DNA of 64,000 bases from positions 523,569 through 587,568 of the forward strand of contig BOLA01000001.1 of the NCBI GenBank assembly GCA_016861265.1, written 5' to 3'. Below, one piece after another: positions 18,291-54,965 of this stretch. Numbering within the stretch: the first letter of the stretch is position 1; each line of letters opens with the position of its first letter. A program made the position numbers and the translations under genes. Origin of the DNA: Patescibacteria group bacterium (lineage in GTDB: Bacteria; Patescibacteriota; Dojkabacteria; J137). Under the pieces are notes generated by a model that did no database searches, was not told the origin of the DNA, and saw nothing but the letters and a program-made list of their open reading frames with translations.

Positions 18291-19343
18291 TTAATATCTA
18301 TCCTTTCTATAAATATAAGCTTCCATTAGCCTTTGCAACTTATAATTTGCACTTGTAGGAATATCTAGACCTCCCACATAGTCAAATTCGCTACCTCCAA
18401 ATCTTTTTTTAAATTCACTAACCCCATTCATTCCATTGTTTACGCTCTTTCCTTCAGGAATTATTCCCCACATATTATAAGTTACAAAACCCTTTTGTTT
18501 TAAATCTTTTATAATTTCCCAGTGCAGTAAGTAAGACGCACCGTACTTTTGTATTTCTTTATTGTTTACCGAACCACCATGGGAATAGTAACCAATATTA
18601 TTATAAGTATTAATTAATGCTCCAGAAATATACTGACCGTTTAATTTTGCTAAATACAAATTAAACATCGAGTTTTTTAAATATTCAAATTGCTTAATAA
18701 AATAATCTTCGGAAAAACTTGCAAAATCATGTCTTTGAGTTGTGCTGCTAAGTATTTTGTAAAATTCCCTAACTTGTTCTAGAGTGTTAGTCTTTTCCAC
18801 TGTAATTCCAACTTTTACCGAATTTCGAATATTGTATCTTGCAACCTTTTTCATATCTGCCAGTAAATGCTCCTCATCTTTTTGAATATCAATTTGCCAA
18901 ACATATTTAGCCTGAGTCGGAGCCATAGACTTTATAAAACCTACCGATTCTAATATTTCCAAATTATTCACAGATACTAACGGGTCAATTCTAAAGCAAT
19001 TTAAATTTCTTTCTGCTGCAAATTTATACTCCCAATTTTTAATCTCGTTGAATACATCGGCAAATACATTTCCTTGTTCGTTAATCTTAGAAAAATTTAT
19101 TACTGGACCATAAGGAGAGTAAGCATATTTAGCAAGTTTTCTCCTAAAGATCTCAATATAAAAATTTCCAATAAATTCCTGATTATATTGAATTAAATAC
19201 ATTTCTATTTCTTTTCCTAAGGATTTTTGAAAATTAATCCAATCAATGGAAGTCAAAAAGGAAGAATTACTTGATTGATTAATAGATTCCCAAATTTCAG
19301 AATGAGAATCTTCGTATTTTATGAATGAAAGATTTAAAGACAT
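18291..19343 (-). CDS. FemAB-family peptidoglycan interpeptide-bridge aminoacyltransferase (paralog)
   Basis: C-terminal FKKRFGG plus a coiled-coil insert typical of FemA/FemX. Confidence 0.65.
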   Translation of the reverse strand: MSLNLSFIKYEDSHSEIWESINQSSNSSFLTSIDWINFQKSLGKEIEMYLIQYNQEFIGNFYIEIFRRKLAKYAYSPYGPVINFSKINEQGNVFADVFNEIKNWEYKFAAERNLNCFRIDPLVSVNNLEILESVGFIKSMAPTQAKYVWQIDIQKDEEHLLADMKKVARYNIRNSVKVGITVEKTNTLEQVREFYKILSSTTQRHDFASFSEDYFIKQFEYLKNSMFNLYLAKLNGQYISGALINTYNNIGYYSHGGSVNNKEIQKYGASYLLHWEIIKDLKQKGFVTYNMWGIIPEGKSVNNGMNGVSEFKKRFGGSEFDYVGGLDIPTSANYKLQRLMEAYIYRKDRY

Positions 19344-19365
19344 ATGTTTAGTTTAATTAAAAGTA

Positions 19366-19387
19366 AGGCAGGTAACAACCTGCCTTA
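19366..19387 (-). terminator. rho-independent terminator-like hairpin downstream of dnaN
   Basis: aaggcagg taacaa cctgcctt is a perfect 8-bp stem followed on the minus strand by a T-rich stretch. Confidence 0.5.
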
Positions 19388-19427
19388 AATATTATTTCTT
19401 TGATTCTATTTAATGATAAAAATAGTC

Positions 19428-20576
19428 TTATACGTCTCTTCTAAGTGGCATTAGTATATGAATATATTTACTGTCTGCTTTATCTTTAAAAATAGATGCA
19501 CTCAAAGGACCTTTTGTTTCAAATTTAAGTGTTTCGCCTTTAATATGGTTTACCAAGTCCTGCAGATATCTTAAGTTGTATGCAGAATTTAAATCACCTG
19601 AACCATCTACAGATGTTACTTCGATTACAGTTTCGTTTTCTCCAACTTCTGCAACAGAAGATCTTAATTTAATAGCATTACTTTCAATATCAAAATCGAA
19701 TAGTGTCTTACTCGATAAATTCGATCTTGCAAATGTATTTACAATCTTAATACCTTCTTCCAAATCACTTCTTTTAACTTCGAATGTATAGCTGAAAGAA
19801 TCAGGCATTATTCTCTTATAATCAGGATAAGGTCCTTCTATTAATCTTAAACTTATTTCAACATCATCAAATTTAAAGATAATCTGAGATTTATTTTCTG
19901 TAATATATACATTAACTGTATCTACATCGGAGTAGTCTTGTAATATTTTTACAACTTCTGCCATATATCTAGCTGGAACAATAATTTGTCCTGTTGCTAA
20001 ATCCTTCTTTAAATTTGTAATTTTTGCACTTCTTTTAGAAAGTCTAAAACCGTCTAATCCAATAAAAGAGATTTCTTCATCGTTTTCTCCTAATTCAAAT
20101 AAAACTCCCGTCTGTTGAATTTTGCCGGCACTGAAATCAGTTGAACAAGCAAATAAAACTTTATCCATCGAAATTATTAACTCCGAAGAAGATATTGTGA
20201 ATAATGGTTCTTCAGGTGTTGCAGGTAATGGAGGAAACTCGTTGCTTGGAATTGTTGAAAAATTTGCTTTTGATTTTGAGGTCTTTACTAATAAAGTACT
20301 GTCCTTAGATTCAATATCAACTTTATCAGAAGAAGATGCTACTACAAAATCAGCAATATACTTAGCAGATACTGTTGTACTGCCTTCTTCTTCTACTTTT
20401 CCAGGTATCCACATGTTAATACCCATATCCAGATTGGTTGCAGACAATTTAATATCTGTATTAGATACATCTAGTAAGACATTGGACAACACAGGAATAT
20501 TAGGTTTTGTACTAACTGCCCTAGAAGCATACTGTAAAGATTTAGCAAGCTTTGAATGATTTAAAGTGATCTTCAT
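19428..20576 (-). CDS. dnaN: DNA polymerase III beta sliding clamp
   Basis: MKITLNHSKLAKSLQYASRAVSTKPNIPVLSNVLL, with three-domain length of 382 aa. Confidence 0.88.
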   Translation of the reverse strand: MKITLNHSKLAKSLQYASRAVSTKPNIPVLSNVLLDVSNTDIKLSATNLDMGINMWIPGKVEEEGSTTVSAKYIADFVVASSSDKVDIESKDSTLLVKTSKSKANFSTIPSNEFPPLPATPEEPLFTISSSELIISMDKVLFACSTDFSAGKIQQTGVLFELGENDEEISFIGLDGFRLSKRSAKITNLKKDLATGQIIVPARYMAEVVKILQDYSDVDTVNVYITENKSQIIFKFDDVEISLRLIEGPYPDYKRIMPDSFSYTFEVKRSDLEEGIKIVNTFARSNLSSKTLFDFDIESNAIKLRSSVAEVGENETVIEVTSVDGSGDLNSAYNLRYLQDLVNHIKGETLKFETKGPLSASIFKDKADSKYIHILMPLRRDV

Positions 20577-21038
20577 AATCTATTTATTTTTTAATAAGTA
20601 GAAATTATTAGTATATAGGCAATGTCTATATGTGAATAACTTCGTGAGTCAATTGATTATATCAGCATATTTTTGATTTTGTATATGTGGATATTGTTGG
20701 TGGATGCAATTTGATTAATTTATGGTTGTATTCCCAATCCTTAAGGCTTTTACATTTTTTTTGGTGTGATTGAATACAAGTTCTACTTCAGAATAGTTTA
20801 AAAATTATCCTTATTGGACAATATTTGTAGCTATGTGTAAAACCACATAATGTTTTCACGAAATCATTTAAAATTTTATAAGTAATTCTATTTAAACCAA
20901 TTTTACCAATGTATATATTCAAAATACTTTCTGCAAGTAATATCTAGAATTCAAATACTCTTGGTAAAAGTTTGTAATACAAAAATATTGCCACTTTACC
21001 AAAACAAGTGTAATCTAAAAATACATTAAAAATGATAA
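20577..21038. promoter_or_regulatory. candidate oriC segment: AT-rich intergenic region with DnaA-box-like 9-mers
   Basis: TGTGAATAA (20631-20639), TGTGGATAT (20686-20694) and further degenerate boxes. 460 bp very AT-rich, sitting between dnaN and the cassette. Confidence 0.45.
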
Positions 21039-21866
21039 ATGGCTAAAATTAATCTAAAAATACAAAGTGAAGATAGTAAGTTAAATTTTGAGCAAGAGAT
21101 TTTATTAGCAGATGTAGGTTTTATAATTAGCTATCTATCAGGAAGTAAAAAACAAGAGATTGTTAAAGGACAGAACTTAATAATTAAACCACAAATTGCA
21201 ATAAATGATACAAAAGAATTAACTAATCTACTAGAAAGATATCAACCGAGAAGTAATGTTGAGAAGTTAGCTTTGTTTGCAACTTATCTTAATAAGAAAA
21301 ATAATGATCAGCCTTTTTCTGAAGACCAACTTAAAGATTTATTTGATTTATCTAATTTAAAAATGCCTGAAAACTTTAAAAGAGATTTGTCGATTGCAGT
21401 TGAAAGAGGAGTTTTATTTAAACTAAAAGATTCGAATACTTTTATTACAACAAATAAAACTAATAAAGAGTTAGAGAATATGCTTTTTAAACAAACTATA
21501 GATGAATCAACTATTTTCAAAAAGAAAAGGGTAAGAGGATTAACTGAAAGAGCAGAGTTAAACGACTCAATTAAATCAGTTCCAATAACAGGGAGTATAA
21601 AAGGGGTATCAATTAAATATAGAGAGCTTAAAAGTGGCTCTGAGCGAATTTTATGGGTGGTTTTATACCTTAAGACTCATGGAATTGGAAATGTTTCTAT
21701 TAAAGATGTTGAATTTTTGAGTGATAAATTAGGAAAAGTATTGCAGTCAAAGTATTTTGCAATGTATAACAAAACAAATATTGATGAAGGTAAAATTGCT
21801 AAGGTAGAAAATAAGTTTATTATTACTGAAGAAGGTGAGAATTATATTAGTTGTTTGAGTATTTAA
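21039..21866 (+). CDS. hypothetical protein
   Basis: 275-aa ORF, no recognisable motif. Confidence 0.5.
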   Translation: MAKINLKIQSEDSKLNFEQEILLADVGFIISYLSGSKKQEIVKGQNLIIKPQIAINDTKELTNLLERYQPRSNVEKLALFATYLNKKNNDQPFSEDQLKDLFDLSNLKMPENFKRDLSIAVERGVLFKLKDSNTFITTNKTNKELENMLFKQTIDESTIFKKKRVRGLTERAELNDSIKSVPITGSIKGVSIKYRELKSGSERILWVVLYLKTHGIGNVSIKDVEFLSDKLGKVLQSKYFAMYNKTNIDEGKIAKVENKFIITEEGENYISCLSI

Positions 21867-21901
21867 ATTTATAATATAATTAAAATAATTACCCGTTTAC
21901 T

Positions 21902-22690
21902 ATGAAAAATCCATTTAAACAAGAGAAAAACTGGAATAAAACAGTTCTTGCATCTGAACGTATTGCTGCAAAAAGAAAACTAGAAACACCAATCACATCC
22001 CTTCTTGGTAGATATGTACCAGGTCTAGAAAGACTTTCTCCGGAAATGTTTGACAGCAGAAGTAGATACCTAAGCAGACCAATTATAGGCAGAGATAGCA
22101 AAATTGATGGGGGTGTTTATTTAGGTGAAAGTGAGAGAGAGGCTTTAGTTGTTGATTGGGAGAGGTCTCCAAACATTCAGAAGCTTTACAACACAATATT
22201 AAATGGAGCATTAGATTGGGATGAATATAGACAATCAGGGAAGATGATATACAGAAAAAGCGATGAAGATGGTAAGAAAGGACTTATTTCTGTAGCTTAT
22301 GATGTAGTTACCTCTCATATGAATGGAAGAAATCCAGACATGACTGAAAGCTATATATACGAAAAAGGTTGGTTAATGGATAAGAAAGTTAACCTGGATC
22401 ATTTTGTTGAGGATAGAATTGGAGTTTGTAGACATAGAGCACTGGTATTAGGTGTAATTTTAGAAAGAATGATTAAGGAAGGTCTATTATCCGGTAAAGT
22501 TTCCGTTGATAGAAATACAGCTGAATATAGAAGGGGCTATGGCGGCCATGCCTGGGTAAGATATACTACGAGCTCAGGAAAAGTTATTATTTTAGATCCG
22601 ATGCATGGATACAAAGGGAGTCTTGAGAATGTTAAGAGAGAAAGAGCAAACGGTAATAGAGTTTGGGACTATCTAAGACCTAAAGACTAA
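21902..22690 (+). CDS. hypothetical protein with a transglutaminase-like Cys-His-Asp core
   Basis: GVCRHRALVLGVIL (Cys), GHAWVRY (His) and IILDP (Asp), in the order and spacing of the transglutaminase-like/papain-fold superfamily. Locally higher GC. Confidence 0.4.
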   Translation: MKNPFKQEKNWNKTVLASERIAAKRKLETPITSLLGRYVPGLERLSPEMFDSRSRYLSRPIIGRDSKIDGGVYLGESEREALVVDWERSPNIQKLYNTILNGALDWDEYRQSGKMIYRKSDEDGKKGLISVAYDVVTSHMNGRNPDMTESYIYEKGWLMDKKVNLDHFVEDRIGVCRHRALVLGVILERMIKEGLLSGKVSVDRNTAEYRRGYGGHAWVRYTTSSGKVIILDPMHGYKGSLENVKRERANGNRVWDYLRPKD

Positions 22691-22760
22691 CTTCTTCTTA
22701 TCAATTTGACACAACGAGGTATTCCTTTATTAATATTATTTATATTTCTTACCTTTTAAT

Positions 22761-23231
22761 ATGCCTACAAGCCAAGATCTTCAAAAAATTTTAAGAGAAT
22801 TTAATTTGATGGGTTACGCAGATACTTCTGCTAAATATATTGATAACGGCAAAAACGGAAAGATAATTACAAAGCAAATAGGGGAATATAAATACGAAGA
22901 TGAATTTTATGGTGGAGAACCATATTCCGGTAACGAAACAATCTGGTTTAACGGCAAAGACGTTTTTAGATGTGTATATTGGGGGAAAGTAGAAAAGGGT
23001 ATTAAGTTTGGCGATGTTTACGATTTTTTAAGAAAAGCTTTAATGCAGGGTCCAAATAATAATCTGGTTCACAGAGGTCCAGCAGAATTTATAGAAGGTA
23101 ACTTAAAGTACACAAATTCAATAGAAGGAACAATAGATGAGTTTAGACAAATAGAAAAAATATTTATTGATAACAAAGAAGTTTATATTGCTTACTTTTT
23201 TGGGGGTAGAGTAAATATACAGGAAGAATAA
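22761..23231 (+). CDS. hypothetical protein
   Basis: 156-aa ORF. Confidence 0.45.
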   Translation: MPTSQDLQKILREFNLMGYADTSAKYIDNGKNGKIITKQIGEYKYEDEFYGGEPYSGNETIWFNGKDVFRCVYWGKVEKGIKFGDVYDFLRKALMQGPNNNLVHRGPAEFIEGNLKYTNSIEGTIDEFRQIEKIFIDNKEVYIAYFFGGRVNIQEE

Positions 23232-23235
23232 ATTT

Positions 23236-23610
23236 ATGACTAGAGAATTTTTCGAGGGGAAAAGTGAACAGGAAATAATTACGTTTCTAAGAGATTTAAA
23301 AACACAATTAGATCAGGGGGTAGATATGGATCCGCAAAGATTCATTCAATATTTTTTAAACTTGTTAGGTTCTGGATTGGCAGAATCCAGAAACCTAGAA
23401 ATAAGAATGTTACTGTCATCATTGTGTTTTTCTTTCTTGCCTAGATTTCTGGGTGAATTTACTGACTCACAGATACTTGCGTTTGTTGATAATGAAAATG
23501 GACAAGCCGTATTAAACGAAATAATTGAAATAACAACAGTACAAGGTATTTCCTATAGAGATCATGTAGAGTTAACTATTAAGGCTGCAAAAGAAAGTAC
23601 CAAACTATAG
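23236..23610 (+). CDS. hypothetical protein
   Basis: 124-aa ORF, 4 nt after the previous gene. Confidence 0.45.
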   Translation: MTREFFEGKSEQEIITFLRDLKTQLDQGVDMDPQRFIQYFLNLLGSGLAESRNLEIRMLLSSLCFSFLPRFLGEFTDSQILAFVDNENGQAVLNEIIEITTVQGISYRDHVELTIKAAKESTKL

Positions 23611-25017
23611 TTATTCCAACTCATCATCAGGGCTGGCACTTTCGTTAATATTAGTAATTATTTGTGCAACCTGTCTGTTAAATCCATCTTGAAGCATCAT
23701 TTTGCTTTTAATTTTATCTATAGCGTGTAGTACAGTGGTGTGATCTTCTCGGTTTAAGAATTTGGCAACTTCTTCTAATTTGTAATTAAACTCTTCCCTT
23801 AAAATATACATTGCCACCTGCCTAGCTAATGCTAATTCTTTTGTTCTTCTTGGTCCTTTTAGATCTTTTACGGTTACTCCAAAGGATTTAGCAACTTCCT
23901 TCAATACTTTTGGCACCTTTACTTTTTCACGTTTACTTTGAGCATCTTTGCCAATTGTGTGAGCTACTTCTTCCATTGTTAAATCCCCATTAGGTTTCAT
24001 TTGATTGTATAAAGCAACTTTTTGTAAAGCCCCTTCTAATTCCCTAATATTATCGGTAACGGCTCTTGCAATATATTCAATAACTTGTGGCTTTAAAGAT
24101 ACTCCAGTTGTGTCAGCTTTTCTTTGTAATATCGCAAGTCTTGTTTCGTAATCAGGATTAGAAATATCGACAACCATTCCCCCCAACATTCTAGATTTTA
24201 ATCTTGATTCTAAACTTTGAATGTCTTCTGGTCTTCGGTCTGCAATAAATATTACTTGTTTACCTGCGTTATGAATTTCGTTGAATGTATTAAAGAATTC
24301 ATCTTGAGTTGCTACCCATTTACTAATTAACTGAACATCGTCAATTATTAATAAATCAACTTGTCTGTATTTCTGTCTAAAGGCCTCCATGCCACCACCT
24401 TTAATTCCCTTTACCATTTCATTTAAAAAACCTTCGGAAGAAATGTATTTAACTTTATACTTCGGATTTCTTTCAATCATTGATCTTCCAATAGATTGTG
24501 CTAAGTGAGTTTTGCCGACACCAGTTTTACCATGCATAAATAATGGGTTGTACAAAACACCGGGATTATCGATTACAGCAAGTGCTGCTGCATGGGCTAA
24601 CCTGTTAGAGTTTCCAACCACATAATTAGAAATTGAATACTTTGGATTTAAACCCGATTTATTTATTGTTTCAGAAACAATGCTCATCATTCCGTTTTCT
24701 AGGTTTAATAACGGAGCAGAATCCGGATCCTTTTCTTTTTGATCATCAGGTATTGTTTCGGAGTGGTAGACCTCAAAAATCGGATTTAAACTATCTCCGT
24801 AAACGTAACTTACAGTTTCCTTAATTAATCTTTCGTGTTTTGATTTTAACCACTCAAGAGAGTAAGGGTTTTGAACACCAATAAAGACATTTCCATTGTC
24901 AATTTTTAAGAGTTTAGTTCCTTGAAAAAAAGTCTTAAAAGTTGCAGGAGAATCGAGTTTTATTTCTATTTGAGCAAGCGTGGTTTTCCAAAGCTGGGCT
25001 GGATCTTTAATTTTCAT
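23611..25017 (-). CDS. dnaA: chromosomal replication initiator protein DnaA
   Basis: AAA+ Walker A GKTGVGKTHLAQSIG, Walker B LLIIDDVQ and a C-terminal DNA-binding helix-turn-helix. 468 aa. Confidence 0.92.
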   Translation of the reverse strand: MKIKDPAQLWKTTLAQIEIKLDSPATFKTFFQGTKLLKIDNGNVFIGVQNPYSLEWLKSKHERLIKETVSYVYGDSLNPIFEVYHSETIPDDQKEKDPDSAPLLNLENGMMSIVSETINKSGLNPKYSISNYVVGNSNRLAHAAALAVIDNPGVLYNPLFMHGKTGVGKTHLAQSIGRSMIERNPKYKVKYISSEGFLNEMVKGIKGGGMEAFRQKYRQVDLLIIDDVQLISKWVATQDEFFNTFNEIHNAGKQVIFIADRRPEDIQSLESRLKSRMLGGMVVDISNPDYETRLAILQRKADTTGVSLKPQVIEYIARAVTDNIRELEGALQKVALYNQMKPNGDLTMEEVAHTIGKDAQSKREKVKVPKVLKEVAKSFGVTVKDLKGPRRTKELALARQVAMYILREEFNYKLEEVAKFLNREDHTTVLHAIDKIKSKMMLQDGFNRQVAQIITNINESASPDDELE

Positions 25018-25086
25018 AGTATAATTGTTTATCTGTTGAATTTATTTTTTGTAATCTGAGTTACAAATCTATTATTGCACGAAAAT

Positions 25087-25102
25087 TTATCCACGTGGAT
25101 AA
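25087..25102. promoter_or_regulatory. palindromic pair of perfect DnaA boxes (TTATCCACGTGGATAA) in the dnaA / yidD divergent promoter region
   Basis: TTATCCAC consensus on both strands, 30 bp upstream of the dnaA start. Confidence 0.7.
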
Positions 25103-25147
25103 CCTATAATAGTAATTTGTAAAATTATTACTTGGTAATTAATTTTA

Positions 25148-25447
25148 ATGAAGAAGTTATTAAATTTTCTTTTAAATATTCCTAAATACCTAGGTTTAAT
25201 TTTGATAAGAATTTATCAAAAGCTTTTCTCGTTCGATCATTCATTTTGGGCAAAGTATGTGAATTATAGAGTTTGTATTTATCATCCTTCTTGTTCTGAA
25301 TACACATATCAGTCAATAAATAAATTTGGACTAATAAAAGGATCTATAATGGGTTTTTTTAGAGTACTGAGATGTAATCCAACTAGTGTGCCCGGAAACG
25401 ACCCTGTTCCAGATCACTTCAGTATTAAAAGAAATTACGTTGATTAA
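25148..25447 (+). CDS. yidD: membrane protein insertion efficiency factor YidD
   Basis: IRIYQKLFS...CIYHPSCSEYTYQSINKFG matches the YidD signature (RxYQ...C.Y.PSCS.Y). Confidence 0.75.
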   Translation: MKKLLNFLLNIPKYLGLILIRIYQKLFSFDHSFWAKYVNYRVCIYHPSCSEYTYQSINKFGLIKGSIMGFFRVLRCNPTSVPGNDPVPDHFSIKRNYVD

Positions 25448-26208
25448 GTATATACAATAATATCTGTGTGGTTTTCCTTCGCAAACTCCTTAAATTGATG
25501 AAGCCATTTTAGATGCTCCATTTCTATTGCTAGAATTCTTAAATCGTTTAAGTTGTTACCCTTGAGTAGAATTAATGAAGCATTAACTTCTTGGTCAATA
25601 TTTGCGAATTTGCCATAGCTCTTTTCATTCTTTTCGTGATTTGGAGCGAATATATATGCATACTTATTATGCAGTTTAAATTCTACTTCCTTATCGAAAT
25701 CGGTAAGATGGAATTTTGCCTTCCATGTTACTTTTCCGAAACATGCAGCAATATCCACATAGTTTAAGTAGTAATCTTCAATATTATTTGAATTTAGAAA
25801 ACTTATAATTTTTTGAATAATAAAAAATTTAAGTAGTGGAGAATCAAATTTAAAGTCATCTAGTTTTATTATTGTATGCTCCTCCTTGTTAAGCAGAAAA
25901 TATCCTTCCAGATTAAATTTATCTATATTTTTATTAAATGGATTAAATTCGGAATTTGTTGCCAGAAAGTACTTAATGCTTGTTTCAAAAAACTCAATAA
26001 AATTAGGACTAACAACAACTGGGAATTTTTTACCGGCGTTATTCAATTTATGAGCAGAGCTGTTTGAATACTTAGGGCTAAGATCACTTCTAAGTACAGA
26101 AATTAAATCAGCAATTGCATCTGCCAATTCAGAATCTATATTTTTTACAAATTCCAACTTTAATTCGTGGCTTAAAAAAGGAAAATGATAGGTGTGAACA
26201 TTACTCAT
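25444..26208 (-). CDS. hypothetical protein
   Basis: 254-aa ORF. Confidence 0.5.
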   Translation of the reverse strand: MSNVHTYHFPFLSHELKLEFVKNIDSELADAIADLISVLRSDLSPKYSNSSAHKLNNAGKKFPVVVSPNFIEFFETSIKYFLATNSEFNPFNKNIDKFNLEGYFLLNKEEHTIIKLDDFKFDSPLLKFFIIQKIISFLNSNNIEDYYLNYVDIAACFGKVTWKAKFHLTDFDKEVEFKLHNKYAYIFAPNHEKNEKSYGKFANIDQEVNASLILLKGNNLNDLRILAIEMEHLKWLHQFKEFAKENHTDIIVYT

Positions 26209-32922: not shown

Positions 32923-33273
32923 ATGGTTCCCGTGCTGGTAGTCGGTATGCCGAACGAATGGAGAACTAAGCCAGATAGGAGACGTTCACCTGGTTTCTTG
33001 CTTGAAAGAGCCGGAGGAACTTATCTTGGTAGTGTTACCTGCGGGGATGAGAAATCCCAAGTAGAGTACACAATGCTAATTTCTCCTCAATCAGATATAC
33101 TGCTGTTCGCCTCGAATATCGACAACGGTGGAGGATTTGCCAACGAAGAAGATATATGTAGGCATTACAAAACAGCAAAGCAAGTTTGGGATAACGCATG
33201 TAATACAATCCCCATGCCACCTATCGACGATTGTCGATATCACTGGCAGGGCTGGGTTACCAATAATCTGTAG
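32923..33273 (+). CDS. compositionally atypical (GC-rich) 116-aa ORF that may instead be a structured ncRNA
   Basis: Promoter-like TATAAT at 32884-32889, Shine-Dalgarno GGAGG 9 nt before the ATG, terminator hairpin at 33286-33308. GC is far above the flanking sequence and codon usage is unlike neighbouring genes. Confidence 0.3.
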   Translation: MVPVLVVGMPNEWRTKPDRRRSPGFLLERAGGTYLGSVTCGDEKSQVEYTMLISPQSDILLFASNIDNGGGFANEEDICRHYKTAKQVWDNACNTIPMPPIDDCRYHWQGWVTNNL

Positions 33274-45453: not shown

Positions 45454-45534
45454 AACTAGAATTATTATAAGTAATTTATTTTACTAAACTAATTGAAATG
45501 GCGGGACACACAGGTCTGGAACCAATGAATACTT

Positions 45535-45614
45535 TGGTGAAGGGACTCGAACCCTCACAGATTTGCATCTAATTGTTTGGAAAACAATCGTGTCTACCAT
45601 TGCACCACACCTGG
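45535..45614 (-). tRNA. tRNA-like gene, anticodon loop UU-UCC-AA (Gly-type), with a long variable hairpin and an imperfect acceptor stem
   Basis: Reverse complement shows a D-arm GTGC/AATGGTAGA/(A)CAC, an anticodon stem ATTGT/ACAAT with loop TTTCCAA, a variable hairpin AGAT-GCAA-ATCT and a T-arm GAGGG-TTCGAGT-CCCTT. Only 4 of 7 acceptor pairs form (CCAGGTG versus CACCAAA), so it may be a damaged or atypical tRNA. Confidence 0.4.
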
Positions 45615-45689
45615 AATTCATCCACCAAAATATTCAATTTAATTATAACAAATGAGACATTTGAGACACCTAAAAAAGGAGTCTCAAAA

Positions 45690-54559: not shown

Positions 54560-54677
54560 AATATTCTTAAATGATTAACTTTTTAATTTAATAATATAGA
54601 GATTTTACTACTTTTCTCTTGCATTTTATATTGAGATATACTTAGCCTTCCTCACAAATTTGTATTATAATCATGGC

Positions 54678-54848
54678 ATAAGAGACCTAACCTCATATGG
54701 ATTTTTCTATGTGAGCATGGTTTCTAAACAAAATCGTACGACACGTAAAAACGGCTTCTCAGCCGGTATCGTGTCGTACGTCTACAAGGGGGAACTCTTG
54801 TAGGGCAGCCCGAAAGGGTGTAGCCACTGGTCTGAGAAGTCGTTTTTT
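54678..54848 (+). ncRNA. candidate structured RNA or regulatory element (GC-rich, nested hairpins, pseudoknot-capable)
   Basis: -10 TATAAT at 54666-54671; perfect 11-bp inverted repeat CGTACGACACG (54735-54745) / CGTGTCGTACG (54770-54780) enclosing the hairpin CGGCTTCTCAGCCGG; GNRA-capped hairpin GGCAGCCC-GAAA-GGGUGUAGCC (54804-54825); segment ACTGGTCTGAGAAG (54826-54840) complementary to CTTCTCAGCCGGT; then a T6 run. Confidence 0.35.
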
Positions 54849-54965
54849 GCTATTAAGCCTCAAACACTTTCCAAATCAGCACGTAAATTAATTTTTAATA
54901 CTAATTGCCTATGACAATAAGCTTATAAGTACAGCTAGCTTACTTTTATTTTTTATTATTTTTAT

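Follow-up and report, generated by a model that had tools for sequence, protein, structure and literature searches.

Few gene orders in bacteria are as conserved as the adjacency of dnaA and dnaN, which in many lineages frames the replication origin. We analyzed the locus of these two genes in a 64-kb window (the whole stretch of DNA considered here) from a metagenome-assembled genome (MAG) of Dojkabacteria, a lineage of the candidate phyla radiation (CPR, Patescibacteria); the loci of its relatives carry L-numbers. In the window, dnaN and dnaA are split by a 462-bp spacer (20577-21038) and four plus-strand open reading frames, ORF1 to ORF4 (21039-23610; Table 1). The closest described systems are the bipartite origins of Bacillus and Clostridioides, where DnaA boxes face DnaA-trios at the unwinding site, and distal boxes act by looping (PMC6669920, PMC8287927, PMC7561715). 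In Bacillus subtilis, the two genes flank the unwinding region, and a distal box remained functional at 462 bp, the longest spacing tried (PMC6669920); in Clostridioides difficile, unwinding also takes place in the dnaA-dnaN region (PMC7561715). The locus analyzed here resembles these Firmicutes-type origins (incAB-dnaA-incC-dnaN in B. subtilis, oriC1/oriC2 in C. difficile) in having boxes on both sides of dnaA, and it resembles basal unwinding system (BUS) origins in that a one-orientation box cluster, a GC cluster, CTA-type triplets and AT-rich DNA are found upstream of dnaN, as well as in the tolerance of distal boxes to variable distance. Unlike the Firmicutes-type origins, the window has dnaA and the dnaN-side cluster set apart by 2.5 kb of opposite-strand genes, with a gap in Dojkabacteria of up to about 6.8 kb (in an allele with a restriction-modification (R-M) gene) and of 5.3 kb in another species, and there are 3-4 boxes, compared to 7 in incC. 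In contrast to BUS origins, Dojkabacteria have a short trio array that is out of register and an extended -10 promoter inside the cluster, and unwinding there is a prediction from sequence. The oriC1-dnaA-oriC2 arrangement of Helicobacter pylori, as it is cited in PMC7561715 and PMC8287927, is similar in that two DnaA-box regions, presumed to interact by looping, are split by coding DNA; however, dnaA alone separates the halves there, whereas here they are separated by variable accessory genes, and the distance is polymorphic within a population.

The reading that we consider probable is that the dnaA-dnaN interval is a slot-structured accessory islet, located between the dnaA stop codon and a dnaN-proximal module that most likely holds the unwinding site. 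This CPR lineage would use the interval as a recombination-driven accessory slot, while the DnaA-box module stays attached to dnaN. Each component is of a known kind, and the novelty is in their combination and location, not in a new mechanism. The natural variants, in which the distance between the origin halves differs by kilobases within one population, are a direct test bed for the DnaA-looping model; furthermore, such genomes will be misread by origin predictors that presuppose dnaA-dnaN adjacency or rely on GC skew. It should be noted that the gene calls and coordinates of dnaN, dnaA and the four plus-strand ORFs, which had been proposed in an earlier reading of the same sequence (the original prediction), match the ORF map exactly, and that the palindromic DnaA-box pair placed upstream of dnaA was found as well.

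Table 1. Features of the dnaN-dnaA locus, in window coordinates
Feature	Positions	Strand	Description
dnaN	19428-20576	-	DNA polymerase III beta clamp, 382 aa; three Pfam clamp domains matched
Conserved dnaN-proximal module	20577-20740	-	From the alignment of dnaN-upstream regions of 12 Dojkabacteria genomes
Third DnaA box, TTATTCACA	20631-20639	-	Part of the conserved module
Extended -10, TGaTATAAT	20656-20661 (hexamer)	-	From the promoter scan
Tandem DnaA boxes, GCATCCACC and ATATCCACA	20699-20707 and 20686-20694	-	Part of the conserved module
ORF1-proximal spacer half	20741-21038	+	Inverted repeat TTGGTAAA (20961-20968) / TTTACCAA (20995-21002) around putative ORF1 promoter
ORF1	21039-21866	+	275 aa, tandem winged-helix; stable gap resident in window clade; 14 close homologues
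Slot 2, variable	21867-22705	+	Holds ORF2 (21902-22690, 262 aa) in window
TTGACA promoter and ORF3	22706-23231	+	Promoter element 22706-22711; ORF3 22761-23231, 156 aa, DUF5680
Slot 4, variable	23238-23610	+	Holds ORF4 (23236-23610, 124-aa orphan) in window
dnaA	23611-25017	-	468 aa; Pfam Bac_DnaA (1.8e-57), Bac_DnaA_C, DnaA_N
Palindromic DnaA-box pair, TTATCCACGTGGATAA	25087-25102	.	Followed by TGn-AATAAT, a -10-like element
yidD	25148-25447	+	From the ORF map

Using relatives collected via DnaA, we mapped 16 Dojkabacteria genomes that hold both dnaA and dnaN. The canonical arrangement, with gaps of 230-310 bp, was found in 3 genomes; in 10 genomes the order is kept with a gap of 0.9-5.3 kb, and in the other 3 (L004, L005 and L011) dnaN and its upstream region have switched sides relative to dnaA, and the two genes are divergent, with yidD in between in L004 and L005. 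In control loci from other phyla, dnaN follows dnaA at 93-264 bp in 54 cases out of 62, whereas 13 of the 16 Dojkabacteria genomes depart from this arrangement; therefore, the split or rearranged pair is a habit of the lineage and not a quirk of the window genome. The suggestion that a gene cassette in this gap is uncommon is thus correct for bacteria in general and incorrect for Dojkabacteria. The gap fillers in Dojkabacteria include small orphans and, at the other extreme, ordinary genes of metabolism (adenosine deaminase, nucleotidyltransferase, CDP-alcohol phosphatidyltransferase, HAD phosphatase and, in L008, enolase), and in independent lineages hardly any filler shares the strand of dnaA. 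The femAB pair downstream of dnaN is conserved synteny among relatives. A literature search for precedents of genes between dnaA and dnaN yielded nothing directly applicable.

Presence/absence polymorphism among close relatives, including empty sites, was documented at two positions of the islet, slot 2 and slot 4. In the direction from dnaN to dnaA, the window and the identical locus L089 carry ORF1-ORF2-ORF3-ORF4. In L085, where ORF1 and ORF2 are ~100% identical to those of the window, ORF3 is followed by a gene for a 1,279-aa N6_Mtase/Eco57I/Methylase_S enzyme. A gene of 142-144 aa is found between ORF1 and ORF3, with ORF4 at the dnaA end, in L090 and L091 (ORF1 94% identical); a gene of 147 aa precedes ORF3 and an empty slot 4 in L001 (DnaA 98%), as does a gene of 145 aa, next to ORF1, in L094 (ORF1 63%). 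L002 (DnaA 93%) combines ORF1, an empty slot 2, ORF3 and 288 bp, and L081-83 (ORF1 68%, ORF2 66%) have ORF1 and ORF2 followed by genes for a RIO1-like kinase and a DUF1801 protein. Only a truncated ORF1 is present in L003 (DnaA 87%), and only an ORF1-like gene in L101 (ORF1 36%). In siblings, slot 2 is thus occupied by an unrelated gene of ~145 aa instead of ORF2, or by nothing, and the slot 4 alleles are a type IIG R-M gene in a 4.1-kb segment, the RIO1-kinase and DUF1801 genes, 288 bp, or a terminator hairpin of ~25 bp.

The slot breakpoints coincide with gene ends. In DNA comparisons, homology to siblings stops at 21866 and returns at 22706, which delimits slot 2; the ORF3 promoter block is conserved at this junction, and in L002, with its empty slot 2, the ORF1 stop codon is inside the conserved TTGACA -35 element of ORF3. 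In the case of an empty slot 4, a bidirectional hairpin (GGGAGC..GCTCCC; L094 9800-9825, L001 2615-2639) is located between the stops of ORF3 and dnaA. In the window, the stop codons of ORF4 and dnaA abut at 23610/23611, and no terminator was found between these convergent genes. The cassette is accessory and acquired; it is neither a fixed lineage-specific operon nor a classical mobile element. An acquired origin had been raised as a possibility, and the content does differ among strains with ORF1 and ORF2 ~100% identical or DnaA 93-98% identical. The four genes were not found in relatives as conserved core genes accompanied by a skew minimum elsewhere; the slot contents vary between siblings.

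Chromosomal hot spots and defence islands are kept by homologous recombination between core flanks, the oriC-proximal SCC/rlmH site of Staphylococcus aureus being a loose analogue. The islet is similar to such hot spots in presence/absence and replacement at fixed positions, in one R-M allele, and in the mosaic identity of its flanks; it differs in its very small size (0-4 kb per slot), in having no recombinase, att site or tRNA, in its location inside the dnaA-oriC-dnaN unit, and in that several occupants have no defence annotation. Neither the window nor any sibling has an integrase or recombinase gene in the dnaN-dnaA interval, the junctions contain no shared repeats, att site or tRNA target, and no Rfam family is found near the cassette. 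The slots have a GC content of 0.33-0.36, compared to 0.326 for the window, and the R-M allele has 0.29, which is not a compositional anomaly; with neither integrase, junction repeats and tRNA target nor such an anomaly, a classical genomic island or mobile element was rejected. An integron was rejected as well: as with integron cassettes, the exchanged units are single genes of like orientation at fixed sites; however, intI, attI and attC-like repeats are absent, and the junctions are promoter and terminator sequences.

The comparison of the window with L085 revealed a mosaic, with 100% identity at 19.9-22.6 kb, 86-90% in the 5' half of ORF3 and ~92% in the middle of dnaA; dS is 0 for ORF1 and ORF2 and 0.36 for ORF3. 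This contrast suggests that short-tract homologous recombination is the simplest route for slot exchange between strains, in which dnaN/ORF1, ORF3 and dnaA would serve as the arms, and no integrase or att site would be required. Over a larger region (17.5-27 kb of the window, including femA at 18.7-19.1 kb, and dnaA), blocks of ~100% and 85-93% identity to L085, a few hundred bp each, were also observed; these alternating blocks indicate that short-tract recombination is probably frequent in the population generally.

We compared the cassette with that of a sibling strain and obtained dN/dS values (the ratio of nonsynonymous to synonymous substitution rates) of 0.26 for ORF1, 0.04-0.09 for ORF3 and 0.13 for ORF4, and ORF2 is conserved across a large family of homologues; as judged by this conservation, all four ORFs are real genes under purifying selection. 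Chimeric joins occur in metagenome assemblies, and the window belongs to a MAG; therefore, an assembly or binning artefact that put foreign genes between dnaA and dnaN has to be considered, and its probability is negligible. L089, a contig of an independent sequencing run, is 100% identical to the window over 6.5 kb (19000-25500), so the arrangement is not an artefact of assembly; related variants come from other samples, the junctions are gene ends, and purifying selection applies to all the genes.

The second component of the proposed organization is the dnaN-proximal module. The alignment of the 12 dnaN-upstream regions, which takes in the three genomes with relocated dnaN, revealed ~170 conserved bp that read, in the dnaN sense, as two tandem DnaA boxes 4 bp apart, an extended -10 (CTGnTATAAT), a third box (TTATwCACA) with an overlapping degenerate box, a GC cluster of 3-4 bp, CTA-containing T-phased triplets, an A/T-rich stretch and the dnaN ATG. 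The positions relative to this ATG are fixed in 12 of 12 genomes (-131/-118 to -126/-113 for the tandem pair, -63 to -57 for the third box). Downstream of the third box (-63) there are the degenerate box and the GC cluster (TGCC), and the first CTA is 12 nt past the box; the tandem pair, which is the best conserved, is a further 45-70 bp upstream, with the promoter in between. The rearrangement in L004, L005 and L011 shows that the box module moves with dnaN and not with dnaA. In the window, the third box and the inner box of the tandem pair have at most 1 mismatch and the outer one has 3, all at no more than 131 bp from the dnaN start. The number of boxes in the window alone is modestly unusual (P ~0.004, uncorrected), with three other 200-bp segments having as many and none having more; thus, the boxes are credible because they are conserved across genomes, not because of their count. 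The description of the spacer as an AT-rich DnaA-box region was correct with respect to composition (24.0% GC versus 32.6% for the window) and overstated with respect to the boxes, of which there are two with at most one mismatch and one with three. A further box-like sequence, GTATCCACA, occurs inside dnaN (20405-20413, ~165-170 nt into the gene), at a position shared by L002-L009, and is found in nearly all Dojkabacteria; it overlaps Met-Trp-Ile-Pro codons, and its conservation may be due to the coding sequence and not to a function as a box.

Conservation in the spacer upstream of dnaA is confined to the palindromic box pair, which 11 of 12 genomes have. Together with the adjacent TGn -10-like element, it has the sequence of a classic autoregulated dnaA promoter, and it is possibly the distal half of a bipartite origin. 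As for the dnaN-proximal module, the conserved sequence makes it probable that this is the unwinding half of such an origin and/or a DnaA-regulated dnaN promoter. Its location, between dnaA and dnaN and adjoining dnaN, is of the BUS type, and, measured against the published BUS rules, its sequence is no more than suggestive. These rules call for one or more DnaA boxes of at most 2 mismatches, frequently as a tandem pair, that face the trios across no more than 16 bp, and for at least 3 consecutive DnaA-trios (3'-[G/A]A[T/A]-5') after a GC cluster. The cassette is not part of the module, being flanked by it and by the dnaA stop codon; the distances of the module to the dnaN ATG are constant, contrary to the idea that the cassette redefines oriC.

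If this reading is correct, DnaA would bind both the palindrome upstream of dnaA, at least for autoregulation, and the fixed-geometry module upstream of dnaN, and the opening would adjoin dnaN, as in the Bacillus- and Clostridioides-type origins. The distal boxes would act by looping and tolerate variable distance; thus, DNA could be added between dnaA and the module harmlessly. Genes on the strand opposite to dnaA would run in the same direction as a fork that departs from the module, and this would account for the preference of the fillers for that strand. The stable residents would be ORF1, probably autoregulating at TTGGTAAA/TTTACCAA, and ORF3, with alternative genes after each. The islet as a whole would be a small hot spot of accessory genes of conflict type, given the ancestry of ORF1, the enzyme encoded by ORF2 and the type IIG R-M allele of slot 4.

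Several features of the module weigh against this reading on the origin side and are shared with an alternative, according to which the module is only a DnaA-regulated dnaN promoter, true oriC is either upstream of dnaA, at the palindrome, or, as in E. coli, at a site far away, dnaN needs a promoter of its own once it is uncoupled from dnaA, and the cassette is an ordinary intergenic insertion. There are only 3-4 boxes, and these bracket a good extended -10 promoter (TGnTATAAT), so that the module could be purely such a promoter: in the promoter scan, the dnaN -10 is one of the two best matches (10 of 12) and the sole one with a TG extension, the tandem boxes overlap the -35 region, and the third box is at about +10 to +18. 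Strict DnaA-trio runs (e.g., TTT-CTA-CTT) are exactly 3 units long, occur in 9 of the 12 genomes and are not contiguous with the GC cluster; 3-unit trio-like runs arise in 18% of random 70-mers of the same composition. Moreover, the enrichment of boxes at the level of the window is weak, and GC skew does not locate the origin. The cumulative skew has its minimum at 20-21 kb, which vanishes once the coding strand is modelled (in regression over the 64 kb, the coding-strand coefficient is 0.13, and the best replichore term is 0.017, with no preferred breakpoint); the skew is an effect of gene orientation, and we rejected it as evidence for or against an origin, so the skew analysis proposed at the outset was uninformative on this window. 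Conversely, the geometry of the module is the same in the loci that retain dnaA-dnaN adjacency (L007, L015 and L018), where a separate promoter is less needed, the succession of box, degenerate box, GC cluster, CTA triplets and AT-rich DNA mimics the unwinding regions of B. subtilis and C. difficile, the gap genes of independent lineages point away from the module, and no stretch of the window has more boxes. It should also be noted that the roles of promoter and origin are mutually compatible. On balance, we consider a promoter-only module unlikely.

The history of the islet can be approached through ORF1. A word-indexed search returned 16 matches, all of at least 61% identity, from which ORF1 appeared to be an orphan; this was overturned by an exhaustive profile search of 1.8 billion representatives, which detected 248 relatives, 91 of them at E <=1e-10 and most with the full length of 270-290 aa. 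The AlphaFold2 model of ORF1 (predicted local distance difference test (pLDDT) 70, predicted template modelling score (pTM) 0.40) consists of an N-terminal beta-beta-alpha unit and two winged-helix units, 73-137 and 200-262, each alpha-alpha-alpha-beta-beta, joined by a K/R-rich linker; in Foldseek, it matched generic winged helix-turn-helix (wHTH) proteins. Full-length homologues at E 1e-20 to 1e-27, with 23-25% identity, have neither dnaA nor dnaN near their loci. In six loci, a gene of the Hypoth_Ymh family (PF09509) directly follows the ORF1 homologue, overlapping it or at a distance of no more than 9 bp; otherwise the second gene of the pair encodes LPD3 (one locus) or an unannotated protein of 238 aa (one locus). 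A large serine recombinase adjoins the distant homologue in four loci, and the other neighbours include a type I R-M operon with an OLD-family nuclease, GmrSD with a D12 methylase, a MORC-like ATPase and a T5orf172 protein.

Ymh is a predicted RNase of the HEPN superfamily, typical of R-M and abortive infection contexts (Anantharaman et al. 2013, PMC3710099); a description of the wHTH-Ymh pairing was not found in the text examined. The distant homologues of ORF1 resemble described HEPN (Ymh) modules in being the upstream partner of Ymh in or near R-M and defence genes, whereas ORF1 of the window has no Ymh partner, and Pfam detected no PF09509 match in ORF2, ORF3 or ORF4. Because the distant homologues are paired with Ymh in defence or mobile islands, their sequences indicate that ORF1 descends from the DNA-binding member of this wHTH-HEPN two-gene module; in the window clade, it appears to have lost the HEPN partner, and the position directly after ORF1 is the one that varies. 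Two uncharacterised families are flagged by this analysis, namely the tandem-wHTH partner of HEPN/Ymh toxins and the CPR-wide Cys-His-Asp enzyme to which ORF2 belongs. The wHTH-Ymh module itself is recurrent and uncatalogued (L102, L104, L107, L113, L114 and L115/L116, also L103 and L100): Pfam and PADLOC both lack the wHTH partner family, and the distant ORF1 relatives gave only one stray PADLOC wHTH match. The 238-aa partner in L100 (1072-1788, plus strand) has no Pfam match, and its HDRFIID...GNSLN segment resembles, by eye only, the phospholipase D (PLD)/HKD nuclease motif. The tblastn search of plasmids with two distant ORF1-family members yielded no matches, and a metagenome scan with a single family protein found nothing; the scan was also made with a 5-sequence alignment.

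The repeat TTGGTAAA/TTTACCAA, 35-80 bp upstream of ORF1, is present in all genomes with a full-length ORF1, including the one with 36% identity, and overlaps a plausible -35 element, which makes it a candidate ORF1 operator. Two further blocks of the spacer, TATGTGTAAAACCACATAATGTTTTCACGAA at 20835-20865, which contains a palindrome, and TTGGTGTGATTGAAT at 20755-20780, are common to the ORF1-carrying relatives. The conserved repeats of the shared spacer, along with the tandem winged-helix architecture, known from many initiators and origin binders, could be taken to mean that the gap genes, chiefly ORF1, are lineage-specific replication or origin factors, with ORF1 as an origin-binding regulator encoded beside its site of action. 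ORF1 has indeed retained its place in the gap and its divergent orientation to dnaN even where identity falls to 36%, and the 36% homologue is the sole occupant of another Dojkabacteria gap. It also has a weak match to Replication initiator protein A (E 0.08), which is far below threshold, and we treated it as noise. However, ORF1 is absent from most Dojkabacteria, including some with expanded gaps, its distant relatives are in defence or mobile islands away from dnaA and dnaN, and ORF2 and ORF4 are dispensable between sibling strains; we regard such a role as very unlikely.

The same family context raises another alternative, namely that ORF1 and the slot-2 gene form a toxin-antitoxin or abortive-infection module, with ORF1 as the regulator, antitoxin or sensor and the swappable gene as the effector. 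Distant ORF1 homologues invariably open a tight gene pair whose second member varies, in neighbourhoods that are defence or mobile islands, and the gene right after ORF1 is also what varies in the window clade, where the slot-2 alleles span deep branches: ORF2 accompanies ORF1 at 100% and 68% identity, and the 145-aa gene is present where ORF1 has 94% or 63% identity, and where DnaA has 98%. In addition, transglutaminase-like peptidase domains accompany HEPN and wHTH domains in predicted defence proteins (PMC3710099). Conversely, ORF1 is partnerless in L002, L003 and L101, the ORF2-family genes elsewhere in CPR are solo, in a housekeeping context with no ORF1 nearby, 35 nt separate ORF1 and ORF2 instead of an overlap, and PADLOC matches are lacking. 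This module is possible, although doubtful. The proposal of a toxin/effector-like module was accordingly sound with respect to the defence or mobile islands in which the ORF1 family is otherwise found, and less so with respect to ORF2, whose role in such a module is deduced from gene position only. An extended version, in which ORF1 is a domesticated partner of the wHTH-HEPN pair that binds TTGGTAAA/TTTACCAA and couples a swappable effector slot to the activity of the origin or of the dnaN promoter, would amount to a replication-coupled defence or initiation-control device under balancing selection, with bipartite origin halves working 3-8 kb apart; we consider it quite improbable.

ORF2 yielded 171 homologues in the word-indexed search, essentially all from CPR/Patescibacteria and without Pfam annotation. 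The motifs GVCRH, GGHAW and ILDP, on which the claim of a transglutaminase-like protein had been based, are present, and in an alignment of 52 family members, residues G174, C176, R177, H178, H216, A217, W218, R220 and D232 are invariant; the N-terminal block RPIIGRD..GGVYLG..REA-VVD also has invariant residues. In the AlphaFold2 model (pLDDT 87, pTM 0.86), helix 176-192 starts at C176, H216 is in strand 212-223, and D232 ends strand 228-232, i.e., the order Cys-His-Asp, with Cys at the N-terminus of a helix and His and Asp on later strands, is that of the superfamily. The best Pfam match of ORF2 is Gln_amidase (E 0.094, below the cut-off), and the sub-threshold matches of the family (EDR1_CTR1_ARMC3_pept in 21 of 52 members, DUF553, Gln_amidase, Transglut_core and NAT) all belong to the papain/transglutaminase clan, none of whose curated families reaches the Pfam threshold for ORF2. 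Foldseek against PDB retrieved TglA of Streptococcus pyogenes, vasohibins, USPs, Josephins and GtgE, all of them papain- or transglutaminase-like cysteine peptidases; a profile search of the family against PDB sequences found nothing relevant, and neither did a literature search on TglA find anything directly applicable. ORF2 shares with this group (Transglut_core, DUF553, EDR1/CTR1/ARMC3, vasohibins, TglA) the Cys-His-Asp order and the motifs G-x-C-R-H, G-H-A-W and L-D-P; it differs in that the overlap is limited to the core (template modelling (TM) score 0.34), in its own N-terminal region, and in being CPR-restricted among the matches. From the alignment, the sub-threshold matches, the model and Foldseek, which together sustain the transglutaminase-like assignment, we conclude that ORF2 has a predicted transglutaminase/papain-like catalytic core and represents a distinct, uncharacterised CPR family outside any curated family; it is likely to be a cytoplasmic Cys-His-Asp peptidase or amidase. 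In three other CPR genomes, a family member is solo among housekeeping genes (fpg/recF-like; dnaJ/nusA; efp), so that the position of ORF2 at the origin is specific to the window clade. ORF2 was also said to have locally elevated GC; its 36.6% is within the range of ordinary window genes, many of which have 34-38%, and we rejected a compositional anomaly.

On the side of the genes, too, the proposed islet has to be weighed against contrary evidence. The ORF1 model is only of moderate quality, the structural matches of ORF2 are weak (best E 7e-3, with the TM score given above), none of the four ORFs matches a PADLOC v2 defence model, the ORF2 family elsewhere is found among housekeeping genes, and the gaps of other Dojkabacteria hold enolase and adenosine deaminase. 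Given these housekeeping contexts and metabolic fillers, the conflict-type label rests on the relatives of ORF1 and one R-M allele. Scans of ORF1-ORF4 with NCBIfam, PHROGs and PADLOC detected nothing significant, and Pfam assigned no significant family to ORF1, ORF2 or ORF4.

ORF3 is the second stable resident of the islet. It matches DUF5680 of Pfam over the whole model (2.8e-23, 82.7 bits versus a cut-off of 25). DUF5680 was also found on seven megaplasmid records of the Bacillus cereus group, in one of which, examined here, it is beside an IS3-family transposase and near a SMI1/KNR4 gene; no phage record with DUF5680 was found, and the literature search on this domain returned nothing directly applicable. 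The relatives of ORF4 among 5.8 billion proteins amount to one cluster with 94% identity; ORF4 is a true orphan, yet under purifying selection. Neither ORF3 nor ORF4 had matches among the sequences of solved structures.

Three other features of the window lie outside the islet. The ORF at 32923-33273 (plus strand, 116 aa), just upstream of dnaJ, has 45.9% GC in a genome of 32.6%, with no Pfam match and no convincing Rfam match. The sole tRNA in the 64 kb is tRNA-Gly(TCC) at 45531-45615 (minus strand), with a length of 85 nt according to ARAGORN and 76 nt in the Rfam alignment. In addition, a LOOT RNA (Rfam RF03000; 55 bits, above the gathering score) was identified at 54684-54825 (plus strand), in a 407-bp spacer (54560-54965).

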